Below are positions 2,451 to 60,489 of a stretch of 64,000 nt of DNA, piece by piece; position 1 is the first letter of the stretch; every line of letters begins with the position of its first letter. Made by a program: the position numbers and the translations under genes. Source of the stretch: a virus; the IMG/VR virus record IMGVR_UViG_3300012232_000011, positions 17,196 through 81,195 of that record; one strand, given 5' to 3'. A model generated the notes under the pieces. That model ran no database searches, was not told the DNA's origin, and worked only from the letters and a program-made list of their open reading frames with translations.

Positions 2451-4313
2451 ATGAAACTGATCAATGCCGACGAGCAACCGCCGCGATTGAAAGTCATCCC
2501 TCGCGGTTGCTCGTCGCTGGACTTTCGCGCCGACCGACGACCAAAGGGACGGATCATTACCGTCCATTCCCGCACTGCGAGAAAGCGGAAGGCGGAGCGG
2601 CGGATGCTGTCCGCCTTCGAGATCGCCGGAGCCTCCGCCGCCGCGCCCGAACTTGAGGATGCCGGCGGCGCGCCGCCGACTATCGATCCGCTGGTCGCCG
2701 TCCGCGACCTGGACCCGTGCGACTGGATCGAGCGCAACTTCTACATCGTCAACCAACTGAACGCCGCGACGGAGTTGATCAAACTGTTCCTCCGCCAGAA
2801 GGCGATCCTTCGCTATTGCTTCACCCGCAACGAAGCCGGGCGGTTCCCCTTCCAGATGATCGTGATCAGCACGATCAAGAAATCCGGCAAGACCACGCTG
2901 ACCGCGACAATCGAGCGATGGCTCGCCGAAACACAAGTCCGCTACGGCGAGATCTACTGTCTCGGCAACGATAAGGATCAGGCGCGGGATCGTTCCTTCA
3001 AGTTCGTGAAGGAATCGATCGAGCTGACGCCCGGGTACGACCGCCGGCACGAGATCCTCCCGGGACGTTGGGATGTGTTCGCAAACTCGCTGCGGTGCCT
3101 ATCGTCGCAATCCATCATCAAGGCGGTCGCGGTCGATGCGAAGGGCGAAGCCGGAGGGCGTCCGTATTGCTCCGTCTGGACGGAGCTGTGGGGATTCGAG
3201 TCGGCGGAAGCCAAGAAACTCTGGACGGAAATGACACCCGTCCCGACGATCCCGGACTCAATGCGTATCATCGATTCCTACGCCGGCTTCGAGGGCGAGA
3301 GCGAGACGCTCCGGCGCATCTACGATCGCGGGATGGAGAACGGGCACCAGCTCACGAATCACGAACTCGCGCTCGCGGCCGCACGCGATGTCGACGGCGA
3401 GCGATACGAGGATTTCCTGCACGCCTTCGAGGAGTGCAACGGCGACCCGGACGCGCTCGTTCCCTGTTGGGTCGAAGGCCGCATGTTCATGTATTGGGAC
3501 AGCGGCGCGGCGGCGCGGCGGATCAAAGAGCTACAGACGCCGGAGTATTACGCCGAACAGTCGAAAGAGTTGCTCCCGCAAGAGTTCACGCGCATCCACG
3601 AGAACGTGTGGGGATCCGGCGTCTCGAACGCGATCCCGATTGCTTCGTTCGATGCCTGTTGGGATGCGACGCTGCCGCCGCTCATGCCCGGCGACCTTGC
3701 GCCGATGATCCTCGCGTGCGACGCCGGCACGTCAGGCGACGCCTTCGCGATTCTCTCGATTACGCGACACCCGCTCGACAACACCCGCGCCGCGCTCCGC
3801 GAGTTGCGCGTCTGGACGCCGGACGACTTCCGCGACGAGCCGGGCTTCGACGAAGGGCGGATCCAGTACGTCGAACCGGAGAAGTTCATCCGCTGGTGTA
3901 TCGACAACTTCAACGTGCTGAACATTTGCTACGACCCGTATCAGCTCGAAGATATGATGCAACGGATCCGGCGGGAGACCGGAGCCTTCGCCTCGCAATT
4001 CCTACAGGCGAAGGACCGCGACGTATCGGATCGCGGCTTCTACGATCAGGTCGTCCAGCGGACGCTCTCCTGGAACTTCCACGACACGTGCGAATGGGAC
4101 GGCTCCGCCCACGTGCGCTGCGTCGCGCCTGGCCGGGACCCGACGGAGGGCAAGAGCAAGGTCTTCCGCCAGCACCTAATGAACGCCGACAAAAAGATCC
4201 AAGCGAATCAGGAGTCGAAGATGCGGTTCGTAAAGAAGCCGAGCGGTCGCCCGATTGACCTTCTGATCGCGGCGTCAATGGGCGTCGAACGTGCGCTGTA
4301 CCTGATGATGTGA
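2451..4313 (+). CDS. terL: terminase large subunit (true start may be ATG 2604)
   Basis: Walker A IKKSGKT, Walker B-like VWTELWG, coupling motif IDSYAG, RNase H-type nuclease motifs ACDAG..D, YDPYQ and PIDLLIA. Confidence 0.92.
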   Translation: MKLINADEQPPRLKVIPRGCSSLDFRADRRPKGRIITVHSRTARKRKAERRMLSAFEIAGASAAAPELEDAGGAPPTIDPLVAVRDLDPCDWIERNFYIVNQLNAATELIKLFLRQKAILRYCFTRNEAGRFPFQMIVISTIKKSGKTTLTATIERWLAETQVRYGEIYCLGNDKDQARDRSFKFVKESIELTPGYDRRHEILPGRWDVFANSLRCLSSQSIIKAVAVDAKGEAGGRPYCSVWTELWGFESAEAKKLWTEMTPVPTIPDSMRIIDSYAGFEGESETLRRIYDRGMENGHQLTNHELALAAARDVDGERYEDFLHAFEECNGDPDALVPCWVEGRMFMYWDSGAAARRIKELQTPEYYAEQSKELLPQEFTRIHENVWGSGVSNAIPIASFDACWDATLPPLMPGDLAPMILACDAGTSGDAFAILSITRHPLDNTRAALRELRVWTPDDFRDEPGFDEGRIQYVEPEKFIRWCIDNFNVLNICYDPYQLEDMMQRIRRETGAFASQFLQAKDRDVSDRGFYDQVVQRTLSWNFHDTCEWDGSAHVRCVAPGRDPTEGKSKVFRQHLMNADKKIQANQESKMRFVKKPSGRPIDLLIAASMGVERALYLMM

Positions 4314-5014: not shown

Positions 5015-6994
5015 ATGGTCGCGATTCATCACAACGGAATCGGCGCAGGCGCGAAGGCACTCGACGCGGAGGCCCTCGAAGCGTCCGTCGTCGCAACTCC
5101 TGAAGGCACACGCGCACAGTTCGCCGACCTGTCCGGTCTCCTGTTCACCGCCGGGATCGCCGATGCGATCTTCCCGTGGGGCACCGCGCCGAAAGCGCGA
5201 GACCGCCAGCTCCGCGACTTCTACCCGTTGGAGTCCTACCTGCTCGGCGCACTCGGGATCGTCACCGGGCGCAACGTCGGTTTCTCCTGGACCCTCGAAG
5301 GCGGGACGCGCACCGCCGCCGCAACTCAGGACATGCTCCTGAACGCGAATTACGGGAAGGGTTGGGATTCATATATCAAGCAACTGAGCATGGATCTCTA
5401 TACGCAGGACTGCGGCGGGTTCAGCGAACTGATCCGCGCCGGCGGGCCGGAGGCGTCGGAGAATCAACCCGTGATCGGGATCGGACACCTGGACTCGGCG
5501 CGATGCTTCCAGACGGGCAACCCGCAAGAGCCGATCTACTACCGTGACATCAAAAACCAATGGCACGCGATGAAGTGGTATCAGGTGCAGCCGCACTATG
5601 AGATCGAGAGCGGGGAGGAACGCGCCATCGGCGGGATCTTCTATTCGCTCCAATACTCCGCCGTGACACGTGCGCTCAAGAACGCGCAGGTAATCCGGAA
5701 CGTCACACAGTACGAGGACGAAAAAACCGGCGGCAACTTCCTGCGCGGGATGCACCTCGTTTCCGGATTCTCACAGAAACAGATCGACGGCGCGATCAAG
5801 TCGCAATCGATACAGGTCGACAATCAAGGGCTGATGCGCTATCAGCAGCCGCCCGTGATCTCGTCGCCCGACCCGAACGCGAAGGTCGCGCACGCGCTCC
5901 TCGAAATGGCGACGCTCCCCGATCACTTCGACAAAGAGAGCGTCATGAAGTGGCATATCGCCGCGCTCGCGATGGCGTTCCTTACCGACTATCAGGAGTT
6001 CGCGCCGCTCCCGGGCGGCGGACTCGGCACGTCGGCGCAATCGGCGATCCTTCACGCGAAGAGCCGCGGTAAGTCGCCGATGCTGTTCCAGAAGATGATC
6101 ACGCACCTGATGAACTTTCAGGGTGCGCTTCCGGCGAACGTGTCGTTCCGCTACACCGAACAGGACATCGCGGCGGAGGCGGAACGCGAGGCACTCAAGG
6201 CCGAACGCGCCGCGACCCACCAGATTTACATCACGAGCGGCGTTCTGGATAAGATCGCCGTCCGCCAGAACCTGCTCGACGAGGGCGACATCTCGCAGGA
6301 AACCTTCGACGAACTGGCGAAGCGCGACGCGGAGATGGAGGAAACGCGAGCGGCGGCGCAACAGGACGCGACCCTTCAGGGCGACCTGAAGCCCGGCGCC
6401 GGGAACATCACCCGGGGCGAGAACGTCCTGAACGATTCGACCGCCGCACAGTCGAAGGCGTTGGCGGTGTTGCTCACCGCCGGGATCAAGTCCGCGCCGG
6501 GCAACGAGATCCGGGCGTTCCTTCAGACGCGCATCCACCGGGCCTTCACCGACTCCGCCGACGATCTCGCCGCGCTCGGCTATCTCGACACCGAGGGGCG
6601 GATCATGCTGTCCGGCCTGATCGGGGACACGCTGCGCCACTTCTCCGACCTGATGGACGAGGAAGCGTGGGAGATCGTGGCCCGCAACATCGACGGCGAC
6701 GATGTTCGCCTCCTGATCGGGAAGATGGAGAAGTCCTACGGCTCCAAAGAGATCCCGAAGGGGCGGCGCGAACTCGAGGGCGAAACCACGGACGAAATGA
6801 AGGAGCTGCTCGACGAGATTCAGAAGGAATTGGCGCGGGAGTTGCGGAAGCGTAGGAAGACGGCGGGAGAGAAGGCCATCGAAACCCGCGAGCCGCGCCC
6901 CGCGAGCGTCACAATTGAGGAGCGGGTCGTCCGCGACGACGACGGACTGATCACCGGGAAGGTTGCACACGAGCGGGTCGATTCATGGGAGTAG
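5015..6994 (+). CDS. portal protein with C-terminal extension
   Basis: 659 aa, position after terL, portal-like helical composition; terminal VRDDDGLITG motif resembles that at the end of many portal proteins. Confidence 0.8.
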   Translation: MVAIHHNGIGAGAKALDAEALEASVVATPEGTRAQFADLSGLLFTAGIADAIFPWGTAPKARDRQLRDFYPLESYLLGALGIVTGRNVGFSWTLEGGTRTAAATQDMLLNANYGKGWDSYIKQLSMDLYTQDCGGFSELIRAGGPEASENQPVIGIGHLDSARCFQTGNPQEPIYYRDIKNQWHAMKWYQVQPHYEIESGEERAIGGIFYSLQYSAVTRALKNAQVIRNVTQYEDEKTGGNFLRGMHLVSGFSQKQIDGAIKSQSIQVDNQGLMRYQQPPVISSPDPNAKVAHALLEMATLPDHFDKESVMKWHIAALAMAFLTDYQEFAPLPGGGLGTSAQSAILHAKSRGKSPMLFQKMITHLMNFQGALPANVSFRYTEQDIAAEAEREALKAERAATHQIYITSGVLDKIAVRQNLLDEGDISQETFDELAKRDAEMEETRAAAQQDATLQGDLKPGAGNITRGENVLNDSTAAQSKALAVLLTAGIKSAPGNEIRAFLQTRIHRAFTDSADDLAALGYLDTEGRIMLSGLIGDTLRHFSDLMDEEAWEIVARNIDGDDVRLLIGKMEKSYGSKEIPKGRRELEGETTDEMKELLDEIQKELARELRKRRKTAGEKAIETREPRPASVTIEERVVRDDDGLITGKVAHERVDSWE

Positions 6995-7544: not shown

Positions 7545-7946
7545 GTGCCGAACAACCTGACCAACTTCCTAGAAAATGCGCTGCTCGATCACTCGCTCGG
7601 GCGCACGTCCTACACAATGCCGGCGGTTGTCCGGCTCGTGTTGTTCACCGCGGACCCGGGCGAAGCGGGATCGTTCGCGGACGAAGTCGGCGCGGGCCTC
7701 GGGTACGCTCGGCAACCGTTGACCATTGATGCCGCCGCCGCCGGCGCAACGCAGAACGATACGCTGATCACCTTCGGCCCGGCGAGCAGTCCGTGGGGCA
7801 CCGTGACGCACGTCGGCGTCGCCGACAGCGCGTCCATCGGTGCCGGGAACCTCTTATGGTATGGGCCTCTGAACATCGCGAAGACCGTCGGTACGGGCGA
7901 AGATATCGAGTTCGATCCGGGCGATCTGGACTTCGCGATGTTCTGA
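7545..7946 (+). CDS. small virion structural protein (Gp80-like / tail-fibre-associated family)
   Basis: TNFLENALLDH..LFTADPG..GYARQ..ITF..WGTVTH..GNLLWYG.L..KTV..G..IEF..GDL is a very widespread phage protein pattern. Confidence 0.8.
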   Translation: MPNNLTNFLENALLDHSLGRTSYTMPAVVRLVLFTADPGEAGSFADEVGAGLGYARQPLTIDAAAAGATQNDTLITFGPASSPWGTVTHVGVADSASIGAGNLLWYGPLNIAKTVGTGEDIEFDPGDLDFAMF

Positions 7947-7978
7947 GGAATCGAGTCCCGAATCTGAAAAAAAGGGCA

Positions 7979-17053: not shown

Positions 17054-17262
17054 GCGACGACAAACGCGAGGCGCGAAAGCAAGAGATCCAGAACAAGGTG
17101 ATCGCGAAGTTACTCGCTCGCCTCGATGAGATCCTAGACGACCCGGAGATCCATTCCTTCACACTCCGGGCGACGTTTGGGCGTCGCGTTCCGGGAAGAG
17201 GTGAAAAGCACCCGCCTTTTGAACGGGTGCTGTTCACGAAGGAATGTGGAGACGATCACTAG
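17050..17262 (+). CDS. hypothetical protein
   Basis: MSDDKREARKQ..., ATGA-coupled; the 3' end of track ORF 16060..17262. Confidence 0.6.
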   Translation: MSDDKREARKQEIQNKVIAKLLARLDEILDDPEIHSFTLRATFGRRVPGRGEKHPPFERVLFTKECGDDH

Positions 17263-54214: not shown

Positions 54215-55321
54215 GTGCGACTGGATCTGTATCGACCCGCTCCGGAATATCTGGCGGTGCCCGGGTTGCGGGACGGAGGCGAAGGGTTGAGCTACGAAGA
54301 CGGCTGGTGCGATCTCCCGTTCGTTGTCCAGCACCGCGGACCGCCGCGCCCTGGACCGAACGGCTTCCGGATCGGCGAGGGTCCCTTCGGGTATCCGCTC
54401 GGCGCCCGGGGACAGAACCGCCCGAGCGTGATCGTCAATCACATTATGAGCGGCCACAAACGGACGCTCGACAACTTTGACTGGCGATACGAAGCGTGGG
54501 TCGGCGTCACCTTCGGCCTTGACGATCTCGGCGTGTCGCAATATTGCTCGTTGTGGGACGCGCATTGGGGGAACGGGATCGCCGGTTCCGTGCCGCTGTT
54601 TAATCGCAACAACCCGCGCCTCCGCAAGATGGAAACTCGCGGGATCTGGATCCCGCGTCCGCTCTACTCCCGGAACGCACACTCGCTCGACGGCGGCGGC
54701 GTGAACATCATCAACGCAACGAGCGTCGCGAAGGAACACGCCGGCTTCAGCGGGAATGCATGGGGCGCGAGGATGTGGGAGTACAGCATCGAGATCGACC
54801 GCTGGTCAATCGAAGCCTGCCGGCGCAAAGGGTACGAGCTGGGCGTCGTCGATCCTTCGATGCTGGCGGGGCATATGGAGATCGACGCGGTCAACCGTTC
54901 GATGTGTCCGGGAACAGCGTGGAGCCGCACCCGTGAATACGCCGGGATCGTCGCTGGCGGAGGAGGAGCCGAAATGTTCATCGCATGGCCGAAGAGCGCG
55001 AAGTGGGGAAACGTAGCGGACGGTTGGGTCGGGAAGGTGTATCAACCCGGCGCATACGGGATGAACGTCCGCGCCGACCTCGGGCTTCCTGAGAACGCTC
55101 GAATGGTTCGGCTCCTGAGCGAAATCGATACGCCGAGGGCGGATGCGCGTCTCGTGTACGGGCACGGAGGCGGTAAGGGGACGGACGACATTCTGTCCGC
55201 CGTCAACCGCATCTCTTCGCCGGAGCTGCTGATCTCGCCCGAGGGGTTCGTCGACTTCGCGATCACCGGAGGGCCGATCACGTTTCGCCGTGTTCTCTCT
55301 TCGGGCTTCTGGACGTGGTAG
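54215..55321 (+). CDS. endolysin, N-acetylmuramoyl-L-alanine amidase (Amidase_2-like)
   Basis: VIVNH, AHWGNG, SVAKEHAG and GHMEID..RSMCPG Zn-amidase-type motifs. Confidence 0.75.
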   Translation: MRLDLYRPAPEYLAVPGLRDGGEGLSYEDGWCDLPFVVQHRGPPRPGPNGFRIGEGPFGYPLGARGQNRPSVIVNHIMSGHKRTLDNFDWRYEAWVGVTFGLDDLGVSQYCSLWDAHWGNGIAGSVPLFNRNNPRLRKMETRGIWIPRPLYSRNAHSLDGGGVNIINATSVAKEHAGFSGNAWGARMWEYSIEIDRWSIEACRRKGYELGVVDPSMLAGHMEIDAVNRSMCPGTAWSRTREYAGIVAGGGGAEMFIAWPKSAKWGNVADGWVGKVYQPGAYGMNVRADLGLPENARMVRLLSEIDTPRADARLVYGHGGGKGTDDILSAVNRISSPELLISPEGFVDFAITGGPITFRRVLSSGFWTW

Positions 55322-55528
55322 CTAGATGCCGCGCCGCACTGGACGGCGCGGCTCACTGAACGCCGGGCGGACGCGCAGGAGATCCCGCTGCTCCGCGTTC
55401 CTACAGGCGTCGCAAATCTCGAAGGGATCGCCGGAGTGAGTGCGGCGAACGTCCGGGAGCCACTTGCCGCCCGGACGTTCGCAGATCGCACACTCGGCCA
55501 ATAGATTAGGGCGTAGGTCGAACGTCAT
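55322..55528 (-). CDS. small CxxC zinc-finger protein (island 3)
   Basis: MTFDLRP..ECAIC..ICDAC. Confidence 0.6.
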   Translation of the reverse strand: MTFDLRPNLLAECAICERPGGKWLPDVRRTHSGDPFEICDACRNAEQRDLLRVRPAFSEPRRPVRRGI

Positions 55529-56000
55529 CCCACTCGGCTCCCGCCGCATGCATCTCTTCCAGTTTGGCGCGATCCAGTTTCCCGAACCGCACGGCGCCGG
55601 ACGGCCACGACTGCAGCGACTTCGGGTCGTATTCGTACTTCGTCGCGATGAAGACGCCGTAGTTGCCGGAGTCGACCGCATAGGTTCCGTGCTGATCCTC
55701 TATCGGCTCGCGCACCCGCTCGCCCTTCAGGAAGGGACATGAGAGGAACGCCCGAGCCGCGCAGCGCGGATGGTTGGGCGGATCGTTGAACCTTGTCGAT
55801 TCCTCACCGCCGACGAAGACGACGGGCGACCCGAGGCGTTGGCCGCATATGCCGCAGAGGTTCTTTTCGAGGCACTTGCGGATCCGCTTTGGGTCGATGG
55901 CTTTGAAGTCCGGGACGCCGTCGCGGTCGCGGCTCAAGGTGTACGGGACTTCCTTGCCCTTGTATGCGTTGTGCCCTTCAACGAGGCGGAGCGTTGCCAT
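55506..56000 (-). CDS. conserved Cys-containing phage protein (island 3)
   Basis: PDFKAID..LCGICGQRL..VFVGG..DPPNH..CA..A..SCPFL resembles a known hypothetical phage family. Confidence 0.7.
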   Translation of the reverse strand: MATLRLVEGHNAYKGKEVPYTLSRDRDGVPDFKAIDPKRIRKCLEKNLCGICGQRLGSPVVFVGGEESTRFNDPPNHPRCAARAFLSCPFLKGERVREPIEDQHGTYAVDSGNYGVFIATKYEYDPKSLQSWPSGAVRFGKLDRAKLEEMHAAGAEWDDVRPTP

Positions 56001-56497
56001 TACCAATCCCCCACGGGCTTTTCGCCGTCAACCTGGACCATCCGATCCGGTCGGTACATCGACAGGAGATCCCGCTTCGCATCGTCCAACTTGCGCTGCG
56101 CGACGCGGAGATCGACTTCCCGGAGGGCGACGATCCCGCGCATCGTCGCGGCGGCGGCTTCGCGTTCGGCATCGTAGAACCCGACCGCGCCCGATAGCGG
56201 ATCGTTGCCCCAACCGGGGACGCCGACCTCGTTGCCGTACCACGCCCCGATCCGAAGGTGCCCGTTCTTTTTGAATTGCTCGGGCTTCCAGTAGTGAGGC
56301 GACGCCTCGGGGTTGTCGCCCTCGACGAGCCGCGTCGCCGCGTCCATCGCTATCGCCCTCGCGTCGACGGGTTCGCCCGTCCCGACGTAGACGAGGCGTG
56401 TTCTGTCTAACGCCGGAGGCGATGCCTCGCAGTCGTGCGTCCCGCCGCACCCGGCATCGTGGATCCGGTGATCCTTCCTGTGCATTGGCTTTCCCAT
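56000..56497 (-). CDS. hypothetical protein (island 3; start may be 56485)
   Basis: GC3-rich ORF coupled to the next gene. Confidence 0.65.
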   Translation of the reverse strand: MGKPMHRKDHRIHDAGCGGTHDCEASPPALDRTRLVYVGTGEPVDARAIAMDAATRLVEGDNPEASPHYWKPEQFKKNGHLRIGAWYGNEVGVPGWGNDPLSGAVGFYDAEREAAAATMRGIVALREVDLRVAQRKLDDAKRDLLSMYRPDRMVQVDGEKPVGDW

Positions 56498-57811: not shown

Positions 57812-57860
57812 TCTCCCTTCCTTCAGTTACAAAGGTAACATCCGCCGCTGCGTCCGTCAA
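57812..57860 (-). promoter_or_regulatory. conserved promoter-operator-RBS unit, copy C
   Basis: TTGACG-17-TACCTT, palindrome at 57826-57839, then ACTGAAGGAAGGGAG. Confidence 0.85.
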
Positions 57861-58062
57861 CCCCTGCGGCGGCAATTTGACAGGAAAAGCAGGGCGATTT
57901 ATCGACGCCGACGCGGCGCGGAGCCAACGGAAAAAGCCGGGGACAAGTCACCCGGCTTCATCCTGAAGGATGGAGAAAACAAACCGATCCCGGGCTTACG
58001 CGCCGGGCGCGGGTGTTTCAACCGATCCGATGATAAGGCACGGATAAACCCTCCGGCAAGGG

Positions 58063-58110
58063 TTGACAGTCAAGCGGGGCGATGTTACATTCTTAACTGA
58101 AGGAAGGGAG
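58063..58110 (+). promoter_or_regulatory. conserved promoter-operator-RBS unit, copy D
   Basis: TTGACA-17-TACATT, GTTAC-ATTC-TTAAC at 58084-58097, then GAAGGAAGGGAG. Confidence 0.85.
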
Positions 58111-58391: not shown

Positions 58392-58750
58392 TTCAGATCG
58401 AGACGTTCGAGGGAGCGACGCTCGACGAAGTCCGCGACGCAATCAACGAGCGGCTCGCCGGGACGCATCGCGCCGTACAGACGGCGTCGATCCATATCGC
58501 GACCGCTCGTGTCCTGATGAGCGTACAGACGCCCGGCGCATCCGTCGGCGTCAATCACTTTGAACAGGTGCAGCGATGGTACGGTTGGATCGAGATTTCG
58601 TCGTTCCGGCGCGACCTCGCGACCGAACACACGAAGGGGGAACAACATGCCGATCAGGGGACTCAGCGACACCCGCCGGCTTCCGCGCCTCGGGAAGATC
58701 CGCCTCGGGATTCAAGTTCCGAACGCGAACGGATCGGGGACGCATCCTGA
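58388..58750 (+). CDS. hypothetical protein
   Basis: GTGA-coupled; its 3' end overlaps the next gene by ~100 nt. Confidence 0.55.
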   Translation: MIQIETFEGATLDEVRDAINERLAGTHRAVQTASIHIATARVLMSVQTPGASVGVNHFEQVQRWYGWIEISSFRRDLATEHTKGEQHADQGTQRHPPASAPREDPPRDSSSERERIGDAS

Positions 58751-59807
58751 GAAGACCGATCACTTCGTTTGCCCTCCGGAGCTGTTGGAAGCGTTGGAAG
58801 GCAAAGTGCGGATGTGTTCGTGCGCGAAGCCTGGACCCGTCGAATTGCCGATCATGTTCGTGTCGAATGACATCGACGCGACCGCGCCTCAGTGGTACAA
58901 GATGTACCGAGGCAAGAGCGGCCTCGGGTGTATCGGCGACGGCTTCACCGCAACCGCGCAACTCGATCCGTCGCTGAAGCTCGTCCCGGGTGCCCGTGGC
59001 GAATATGCGAACCCGGCGCAAGCGTCCGCCTGGTCGGGCGAAGGCGCGAAAGTCGAACGCAAGATCGACTGCTTGGGCGAAGGCTTCGATGGCGCGCCGC
59101 CGTGTCCGGTGTATGCGGCCAACCGCTGCAAGCGGACGCTCTCGCTCATGTTCGCGATCCCGGACGCGCCCGGGTTGGGCGTCTACCAACTCGATACCGG
59201 GTCGGTGTACTCAATCCTGAACGTCAACGGTTTTCTCGCGTTCCTGAAGGGGATCACGAACGAACGGATCGCCGGGATCCCGCTCATGCTGTACGCGGAG
59301 CAGCAGGAAGTGACGCACGACAAAAAGCCGACGAAGGTTACGCTGATCCGTCTCGATGCGAAGTTGACGATGGGGCAGCTACAGGAGGCGGTCGGGCGCC
59401 CATACATCGCGGCGGAGTTGCTCCCCGCGCCGGCGGAAGATCCGCCCGACGATGAGAACGTGATCGAGGCGGAGTCCCGCGAGCTTCACGACGCGCTGCC
59501 AGCAATCGACGTCGCCGCCGAGCGGCAGCGTTGCCGGGAGATCCTCACGTGGGCGCACGAGAATTGGAGCGCGGAGGATTTCGCCAACCTCATGGGCGCG
59601 TTGCACGGTAATCTCCAACGTCCGGACGCCTGGACCGAAAAAGGCAACCTCAAGGTGTCACAGCTCGCGCCGGACGTTGCGAAGATGGCGGCGGACTTCC
59701 TACAGGAGCGCAAGGAAGCGGACATCGGGAAGGGACCGCCGCCCGACGAAGGGATTACGTCCGCCTCGGGGACGGGTGCCGCGGAACCCGCCGCCGCTCC
59801 GGGCTGA
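58647..59807 (+). CDS. Gp3-like (recombination directionality factor-like) protein
   Basis: MPIRGLS..RRLPRLGKIRLG..TDHF..CIGDG..C..C...GVYQLDTGS..SI is the family pattern. Confidence 0.75.
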   Translation: MPIRGLSDTRRLPRLGKIRLGIQVPNANGSGTHPEKTDHFVCPPELLEALEGKVRMCSCAKPGPVELPIMFVSNDIDATAPQWYKMYRGKSGLGCIGDGFTATAQLDPSLKLVPGARGEYANPAQASAWSGEGAKVERKIDCLGEGFDGAPPCPVYAANRCKRTLSLMFAIPDAPGLGVYQLDTGSVYSILNVNGFLAFLKGITNERIAGIPLMLYAEQQEVTHDKKPTKVTLIRLDAKLTMGQLQEAVGRPYIAAELLPAPAEDPPDDENVIEAESRELHDALPAIDVAAERQRCREILTWAHENWSAEDFANLMGALHGNLQRPDAWTEKGNLKVSQLAPDVAKMAADFLQERKEADIGKGPPPDEGITSASGTGAAEPAAAPG

Positions 59808-59824
59808 TCCGGTGTTCTAATGGC

Positions 59825-59956
59825 GGAGGCGTTCGCGCCTTCGTCGCTCGCCGTGATTCACGCTCCGGGCAGATCGCCTGGAACCCTATGCGACAAGCTC
59901 CCCCGTCGTATTGGGTAGGATCTACCGGAGATCCCACGGGTCGCGGCGAGCGACGA
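59825..59956 (+). ncRNA. multi-branch structured RNA candidate (UUCG hairpin + four-way junction)
   Basis: 16-bp closing stem 59841-59856/59941-59956 with three internal hairpins; all non-canonical pairs except one U-U are G-U on the + strand. Confidence 0.65.
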
Positions 59957-59988
59957 GAGCGCGGGACACAGCAGAAAGGACTCCGACC

Positions 59989-60489
59989 GTGGCCGACGAT
60001 GCTGAAGATATCGAGTTACTCCCGACGCCGATTGAGAACCATCACGCCGGGATCGACAACGTCCGATTCAAGAAGGGGCCGGGCGCGTCGGTTCTCTCGT
60101 TCACCGTCGAGATGATCTACACCGCGAGGACGCGATCCTTTTTCGACTTCCTCGCCGGCGTCGCTCAGGCTGGCGCGGTTGTGACGATCCGCCCGGCGAC
60201 TGGGATGTTATGGCCGGACGCGACGGAGGAACCCGCCGCCGACAACGCGAGCGACTCTGACAAGGAAGGCGGCTCGTCGCCGCTGCCCGGTGCCTTCGAC
60301 GCTTGGCCGAAGTCGTGCGGACTCAAAGTGAAGACGCACGGGATGAACACGATCTGCGACGACGGGCACGTGACGAACACACCCGCCGGGGAACCGTGCA
60401 ATCGGATGGACAACGAGGCGGGATCACCGGACGACGAACCGCCGGAGAAGCCGAAGCGTCGGCGCGGCGGGAAGGGACAGGCGGGATGA
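59989..60489 (+). CDS. hypothetical protein
   Basis: GTG start after AAAGGA; acidic tail and terminal basic patch. Confidence 0.65.
   Translation: MADDAEDIELLPTPIENHHAGIDNVRFKKGPGASVLSFTVEMIYTARTRSFFDFLAGVAQAGAVVTIRPATGMLWPDATEEPAADNASDSDKEGGSSPLPGAFDAWPKSCGLKVKTHGMNTICDDGHVTNTPAGEPCNRMDNEAGSPDDEPPEKPKRRRGGKGQAG

Follow-up and report, generated by a model that had tools for sequence, protein, structure and literature searches.

A covarying long helix between two early genes of an uncultured high-GC phage, a candidate intercistronic processing or stability element

Almost all that is known of RNA processing signals in phages comes from a handful of model coliphages. In T7, the classical sites, several to a genome, are simple hairpins that measure about 50 to 60 nt and contain an internal loop; they are not stems drawn around a branched interior of 80 nt. 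The R-sites of T7 and T3 and the lambda N-leader and sib sites lie between cistrons of a polycistronic early transcript, span at least about two helical turns with one or two conserved irregularities and no sequence consensus, and leave the Shine-Dalgarno (SD) sequence of the next gene free just downstream. In rRNA processing stalks, sequences flanking a structured RNA pair into a long covarying helix, and the helix is the substrate. RNase III cuts the transcripts of lambda, T7, and T3 between early genes, as well as rRNA stalks, and its minimum target is about 22 bp of double-stranded RNA (dsRNA) (PMC5371410). Stabiliser stem-loops of the ompA type form a stable helix directly 5' of the ribosome-binding site (RBS) and act at the primary 5' end of the message. 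U-less terminators, which are stable hairpins without poly-U, have been reported for the early region of the high-GC phage phiC31, where a Gp3-family gene lies (Ingham et al. 1995, as cited in PMC3993855).

Here, we describe an element from an uncultured phage that shares with the T7, T3, and lambda sites a location between cistrons of what is probably a polycistronic early transcript, a helix of at least two turns with few irregularities and no sequence consensus, and a free SD just downstream. Unlike T7-type sites, it occurs once per genome and encloses a variable interior of 14 to 90 nt that is sometimes branched, and its cleavage is predicted. Its long covarying helix resembles an rRNA stalk, but the RNA that it encloses is not conserved and shows no sign of being a product. 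Like the phiC31 terminators, it is a stable hairpin that lacks poly-U and belongs to a high-GC phage with a Gp3-family gene in the early region; however, its helix is far longer than termination needs and adjoins the next SD with no promoter between. Like the ompA-type stem-loops it places a stable helix directly 5' of an RBS, but it lies within an operon, so that processing would have to come first. The element adds a covariation-supported motif from uncultured high-GC phages, with relatives in Chloroflexota-type metagenomes, and its conserved core is most likely an ordinary kind of object, namely, a long processing or stability helix.

Genomic setting and fold of the element

The window analysed comprises 64,000 nt (positions 17,196 to 81,195) of IMG/VR record IMGVR_UViG_3300012232_000011, a complete virus record of 81,526 bp with 64% GC whose ends are 123-bp direct terminal repeats. 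The phage genes have few known relatives, and the homologs of the Gp3-like protein with the clearest names come from Dehalococcoides, Dehalogenimonas, and subsurface metagenomes. The features considered below, in coordinates of the window, are as follows.

58063 to 58091, + strand: sigma-70-like promoter, TTGACA-17-(TG)TACATT, from a consensus scan (10/12 matches)
58560 to 59807, + strand: upstream Gp3-like gene (PF18897; Pfam E 2e-37), for which the database call begins at about 58854
59808 to 59988, + strand: intergenic gap with the element, 181 nt, from the stop of the Gp3-like gene (59807) to GTG 59989
59825 to 59842, + strand: hairpin 1, GGAGGCG-UUCG-CGCCUUC, mutually exclusive with the bottom 8 pairs of the long helix
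59831 to 59859, + strand: 5' arm of the extended P1, 28 pairs with 59938-59967, covarying in relatives
59841 to 59856 with 59941 to 59956, + strand: P1 as first described, 16 bp including one U:G
59864 to 59882, + strand: P2, 7 bp, a side hairpin specific to the focal locus
59883 to 59916, + strand: P3, the apical hairpin, 11 bp plus a U.U, with the C-rich loop AAGCUCCCCC
59918 to 59934, + strand: P4, 6 bp, a side hairpin specific to the focal locus and not conserved
59938 to 59967, + strand: 3' arm of the extended P1, with the GCGCGGGAC tail, ending 7 nt before the SD
59974 to 59991, + strand: SD (GAAAGGA, 59974-59980) and start (GTG 59989) of the downstream open reading frame (ORF), read from the sequence
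59989 to 60489, + strand: downstream 166-amino-acid (aa) ORF with a Cys/His cluster, with three full-length homologs and a truncated copy in contig L002

Both genes that flank the gap are on the + strand. The database call for the Gp3-like gene, P0001, is 317 aa long and 100% identical, and GTG 59989 is in frame with the open stretch 59911-60489, in agreement with the 166-aa database call (P0121). The promoter at 58063-58091 lies about 1.75 kb upstream of the element. Because the + strand over this distance contains no terminator-like site in the consensus scan, the element is likely co-transcribed from this promoter, which probably drives an operon that includes it. The same kind of scan found no promoter inside the interior of the element. 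A 32-aa frame opening at ATG 59820 was rejected as coding; both differences from L002 in the shared stretch are non-synonymous (2/2), and the two peptides diverge wholly beyond the conserved arm.

The Gp3 family takes its name from the actinophage phiC31. The Gp3-like gene, annotated as recombination directionality factor (RDF)-like, is present here in a complete genome without any integrase: a search of the 81.5-kb genome for Resolvase and Phage_integrase domains returned no serine or tyrosine integrase. The protein presumably has another role in this phage, e.g., in replication or recombination.

We folded the element without constraints and obtained a minimum free energy (MFE) of -78.6 kcal/mol for 59825-59956 (z -6.61), a stability that none of 200 dinucleotide shuffles reached. 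The MFE structure comprises a 5' hairpin and a four-way junction, exactly as the initial annotation had drawn them from the letters, with every helix in place and P3 made of 11 bp and a U.U. In a GC-corrected sliding scan of all 81,526 bp in 180-nt stretches, the element ranked 1st of 1356 + strand stretches genome-wide, with a z of -4.5 compared to -3.1 for the runner-up, and a genome scan found no second element of this kind. When the whole gap (59808-59988) was folded, the + strand gave -96.5 kcal/mol (z -5.6) and the - strand gave -88.6 kcal/mol (z -3.2). In this larger fold, P1 is extended to 28 pairs through pairing of GCGCGGGAC (59959-59967) with the 3' half of hairpin 1; the fold with the extended helix is at -96.5 kcal/mol, compared to -91.0 kcal/mol with hairpin 1 forced. 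The 28-pair helix is interrupted by a single C.A mismatch and a single bulged G; it also has five U:G pairs, each with its U on the 5' arm. Viewed as DNA, the 23-nt arms of the inverted repeat are 87% complementary.

A conserved closing helix around a variable interior

The closest relative of the Gp3-like protein (68% identity) is encoded on contig L002, where the same gap is present. Between the two loci, few differences are seen in hairpin 1, the two arms of the long helix, and the GCGCGGGAC tail, and none at all in the 3' arm and the tail. Hairpin 1 is retained in L002 with a G:U-to-A:U change, and a U-to-C change in its loop suits the extended helix too (U:G to C:G); this hairpin is not clearly present in L045. 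Among 1.84 billion representative proteins, the downstream ORF has just three full-length homologs (L045, L046, and L047; 37-40% identity), in addition to the truncated homolog in L002, and each of the three contigs carries a long near-perfect helix immediately 5' of the RBS. A helix of 23-30 bp thus precedes the RBS in all five loci with this ORF family. A covariance model (R1) built from the focal locus and L002 alone recovered L046 (E 5e-5), L047 (E 1e-4), and L045 (E 6e-4), with position and strand as expected in each case. We refer to the focal locus, L002, L045, L046, and L047 as the confirmed set.

In the model alignment of these five members, 93% of the helix cells are standard pairs, and compensatory double changes occur at 20 of the 27 helix positions. 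Such changes in homologous gaps were what the initial annotation had asked of a real RNA, stating that their lack would refute it. As controls, sliding the 3' partner by 1 to 3 columns left 24-45% of cells paired and 4 to 6 double-change positions, and 500 within-column shuffles averaged 7 such positions and never exceeded 14. Between lineages, 12-31 of about 50 arm residues are identical. The covariation alignment, which holds five to seven sequences from about four independent lineages, was fitted to the model, and for this reason alignment-free checks were made as well. Each locus folded singly gives a helix of 23-30 pairs. Furthermore, when 111 kb of these contigs were scanned for gapless helices (20 pairs or more, 2 mismatches or fewer), only four were returned, three of which are this element.

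The enclosed RNA is far more variable. Its size ranges from 14 to about 90 nt while the helix stays at 23-30 bp, and the four-way junction is found in the focal locus alone. In its place, one long hairpin with irregularities is found in L002 and L045, that of L002 being 80 nt of different sequence and unbranched; L046 is branched, but differently from the focal locus; and L047 has a 30-bp helix with just a 14-nt loop. P2 is absent from L002, L045, and L047. The proposed alternative pairing of the P2 loop AGAUC with GAUCU in P4 is available in the focal sequence, but L002 lacks both P2 and P4. Hairpins equivalent to the apical one have the loops CCGCUCCCCC in L002 and AUGCUUCCCC in L045, on stems that differ from P3, and P3 compared to L002 shows one C:G-to-G:C swap. 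Constant across loci are a duplex of at least 23 bp and the adjoining free SD, which lies outside the helix, 2-20 nt downstream; the base of the helix reads CGCGC/GCGCG in four of five loci, including L045 and L046. The conserved core is the long closing helix, and the cloverleaf is a lineage-specific elaboration of it. The proposal that the four-way junction is the functional unit is not supported, given the unbranched interiors of L002 and L045 and the 14-nt loop of L047. The case illustrates that a striking single-sequence cloverleaf can be a lineage-specific addition within a simpler conserved helix.

The apical loops contain a C-rich motif, GCU[CU]CCCC, common to the focal locus (59892-59901), L002 (about 3056-3067), and L045 (about 134-143). 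It reads GCUCCCCC in the focal locus and L002 and GCUUCCCC in L045. The motif is complementary to SD sequences of the GGGAG type, and the stems around it differ.

Further copies were sought by several routes. Exact-pattern scans with the helix arms over IMG/VR, JGI metagenomes, and GTDB genomes returned only chance matches in coding sequence, many of them from a recurring Ala-Pro-Ser-Ser-Leu-Ala-Val-type motif, and no further copies came from IMG/VR when the Gp3-like protein, the ORF, and an alignment of the ORF were used as protein queries. At the distant Gp3-like loci L003, L005 (at the Gp3 junction), L040, L042, and L044, there is no gap or no unusually stable fold after the gene. Helices like that of the element precede unrelated genes in the related phages L004, L005 (5506-5646), and L049; since they score weakly or not at all with model R1, we count these three as possible relatives only. 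Searches for known families were likewise negative. Rfam gave no match at gathering threshold over the whole window (twister-sister, hatchet, YrlA, and riboswitches included), consistent with the earlier view that the element is undescribed. A permissive Rfam scan of the gap (E up to 10) returned just spurious matches to plant miRNA precursors, the best with an E of 0.16 and 22 bits, where the gathering score is 196, which we attribute to the long hairpin shape of the element. ARAGORN predicted no tRNA or tmRNA gene in the window and the Rfam tRNA clan gave no match, bearing out the annotation's statement that this is not a tRNA. Altogether, the element is a genuine conserved RNA motif, absent from Rfam, that forms a very small family of five confirmed loci and three possible ones.

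Some specific identities were considered and rejected. A Y RNA (YrlA) is at odds with the lack of a TROVE (Ro/Rsr) domain in the complete genome and with the unconserved interior; a retron msr/msd, with the lack of RVT_1 in the genome and with a downstream ORF that is not a reverse transcriptase; and an attP or other site for the Gp3-like RDF, with a genome that has no serine or tyrosine integrase.

The pairing pattern also bears on the level at which the element acts. Helices taken locus by locus contain 12 G.U pairs and 1 A.C-type mismatch (8 and 2 after collapsing the cells common to the focal locus and L002), and the + strand folds better than the - strand in five of six loci. Moreover, the orientation of the element and its spacing to the SD (2-20 nt) are fixed. 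The G.U excess, the + strand fold, and the fixed orientation and spacing speak for the sense transcript as the target of selection, rather than a symmetric DNA palindrome, with a folded single strand of + strand DNA as a less likely target, and they uphold the initial assignment of a structured RNA to the + strand.

Candidate roles of the helix

Our preferred reading is that the element is an RNase III-type intercistronic helix for processing or stability in an early polycistronic mRNA. We hold it tentatively, at a little less than an even chance. It is the best fit since a helix of two to three turns is kept whatever it encloses, the operon is early, there is no U-tract, and the SD is free. 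The helix has 28 pairs in the focal locus and 23-30 in the relatives, compared to the approximately 22 bp of continuous dsRNA of an RNase III site, and a length held at 23-30 bp around a free interior fits a dsRNA-length requirement. The phage genome was found to encode no RNase III of its own, so that the enzyme would be that of the host. We infer RNase III cleavage and an effect on expression along the following lines. The element would be a cis-acting structure in the rightward early polycistronic transcript, with the near-perfect duplex of 23-30 bp as its functional core and an evolutionarily free interior closed by it. Host RNase III would cut this two-to-three-turn duplex and separate the Gp3-like cistron from the downstream one. 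The upstream message would be left with a stable folded 3' end, and the downstream message would gain a new 5' end adjoining a free RBS; the stability and translation of the two cistrons could then be set independently.

Several observations count against this reading. There is one element in the genome, compared to several sites in T7; covariation alone would fit a hairpin-forming DNA element equally well; and the C-rich apical loop, conserved in three loci, is left unexplained by a pure processing role. To our knowledge, RNase III recognition is not predictable from sequence. If cleavage by RNase III takes place, T7-style cutting of an early polycistron would extend to a very distant phage lineage, and the helix would represent a portable, sequence-flexible insulator or processing module.

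The rivals are, in order of declining probability, a U-less terminator, a protein operator, a DNA element, and a free-standing noncoding RNA (ncRNA). As a U-less intrinsic terminator or attenuator, the hairpin would stop or pause RNA polymerase (RNAP) after the Gp3-like gene and throttle the genes downstream. A GC-rich, very stable structure immediately after a stop codon would suit this role, the phiC31 terminators (Ingham et al. 1995) and the hairpin clusters proposed as terminators in PMC8355165 offer parallels, and the 24-bp helix of L049 is followed by GGGUUUUC. Nonetheless, a U-tract is missing from all five confirmed members: their purine-rich tails run into the SD, and the consensus scan finds no site at the element, which is not the pattern of a canonical intrinsic terminator. 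The RNAP of mycobacteria, and hence of at least one high-GC lineage, was shown to need a U-tract (PMC3993855). In addition, about 8-12 bp would suffice for termination, leaving a helix held at 23-30 bp unexplained, and efficient termination would silence the downstream gene, given that the 20 nt ahead of its SD contain no separate promoter. We regard termination as unlikely. An mRNA operator, through which a dsRNA- or structure-binding protein, possibly the downstream Cys/His product, would control translation of the ORF autogenously, is a shade less probable. The helix and the rare ORF family always occur together, and the helix ends 2-20 nt from the SD. Invariant in the ORF family is the cluster W-P-x-x-C-G ... 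C-x-D-G-H-V ... G-E-P-C, whose residues resemble those of a zinc site, and its C...C.DGH...C core could be a zinc-binding module for nucleic acids. However, the arm sequences differ almost wholly between lineages, with no common asymmetric motif evident, and Pfam, PHROG, PDB profile, and ESM Atlas searches gave no lead for the ORF and no sign that it binds RNA; nor did its AlphaFold2 model, which at a mean pLDDT of 51 is too poor for a fold search. The presence of such helices before unrelated genes in L004, L005, and L049 favours generic intercistronic punctuation over an operator specific to the ORF.

A role at the DNA level, in which a hairpin, cruciform, or single-stranded fold would serve as an origin, priming, or recombination signal, would draw on the 87% complementarity of the 23-nt arms, on covariation that would preserve a DNA hairpin too, and on the replication and recombination genes in the neighbourhood of the relatives (Gp3-like, RusA, DUF3987, HTH_36, and Sipho_Gp157). 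We give it a small chance, because G.U (or G.T) greatly outnumbers A.C among the mismatches, in favour of the sense strand, and the element keeps a fixed orientation and distance to the SD. The sequence has neither iterons nor an AT-rich stretch, the GC skew has no inflection that would support an origin, and the genome has no integrase; thus, the origin and attP readings are without specific support, and this applies to the single-stranded DNA origin that the initial annotation had listed among its options. The lowest probability, a very small one, goes to a free-standing ncRNA in which the four-way junction itself would be a ribozyme, a riboswitch aptamer, or a mimic of tRNA or Y RNA. The compact, stable, branched fold and the C-rich apical loop in three of five members would speak for it; however, the junction is absent from every relative, there is no Rfam family, ARAGORN gene, Ro/TROVE partner, or reverse transcriptase, and the unconserved interior largely refutes it. 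In a ribozyme or riboswitch, core nucleotides and the junction would be expected to be kept and the peripheral stems to covary; here, the junction and interior vary and the closing helix alone is conserved, the reverse of that pattern, which weighs heavily against the ribozyme, riboswitch, and tRNA-mimic suggestions.

A different use of the same cut is that the helix is an excision stalk, the cleavage of which would free the enclosed RNA, structured and 80-100 nt long, as a stable small RNA (sRNA) of the phage. We consider this quite improbable, on a par with the DNA-level role. The C-rich loop of such an sRNA would pair with G-rich SDs, e.g., GGGAG in the phage's own early leaders (about 58100-58110) or SDs of the host, and would thereby reprogramme translation, much as in the UCCC-loop sRNAs of Gram-positive bacteria that it resembles. 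If it held, this would be a new class of phage trans-acting RNA made by an rRNA-like processing route.

Other structured sites in the genome and its relatives

The scans brought up further structured sites in the phage genome. A 55-nt inverted repeat (57813-57867 and 58056-58110; 76% complementary, 188 nt apart) carries in each arm a near-consensus promoter followed by the same strong SD, CTGAAGGAAGGGAG; the + arm promoter is TTGACA-17-TACATT at 58063-58091. The repeat forms a mirrored divergent promoter pair, for a leftward early operon from 57805 down and a rightward one from 58120 up. A hairpin at 55436-55491, with 27-nt arms that are 78% complementary and a 2-nt loop, lies between the convergent genes 54215-55321 (+) and 55506-56006 (-) and is a candidate bidirectional terminator. 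The sole other helix of at least 20 pairs within the window is an inverted repeat at 7866-7948 (21-nt arms, 90% complementary, 41-nt spacer), which overlaps the 3' end of gene 7545-7946.

Among the relatives, L005 has a 371-nt non-coding gap (5319-5689) upstream of an HTH_36 gene. This gap, which folds with a z of about -6 on both strands and includes an approximately 27-bp helix, is possibly an enlarged relative of the element or an origin-like region. In L049, a 341-nt gap (1574-1914; z -4.2) lies 3' of another Gp3-like gene. Its 24-bp helix is followed by GGGUUUUC, a short U-run, and then by an SD and ATG, an architecture like that of the focal locus.
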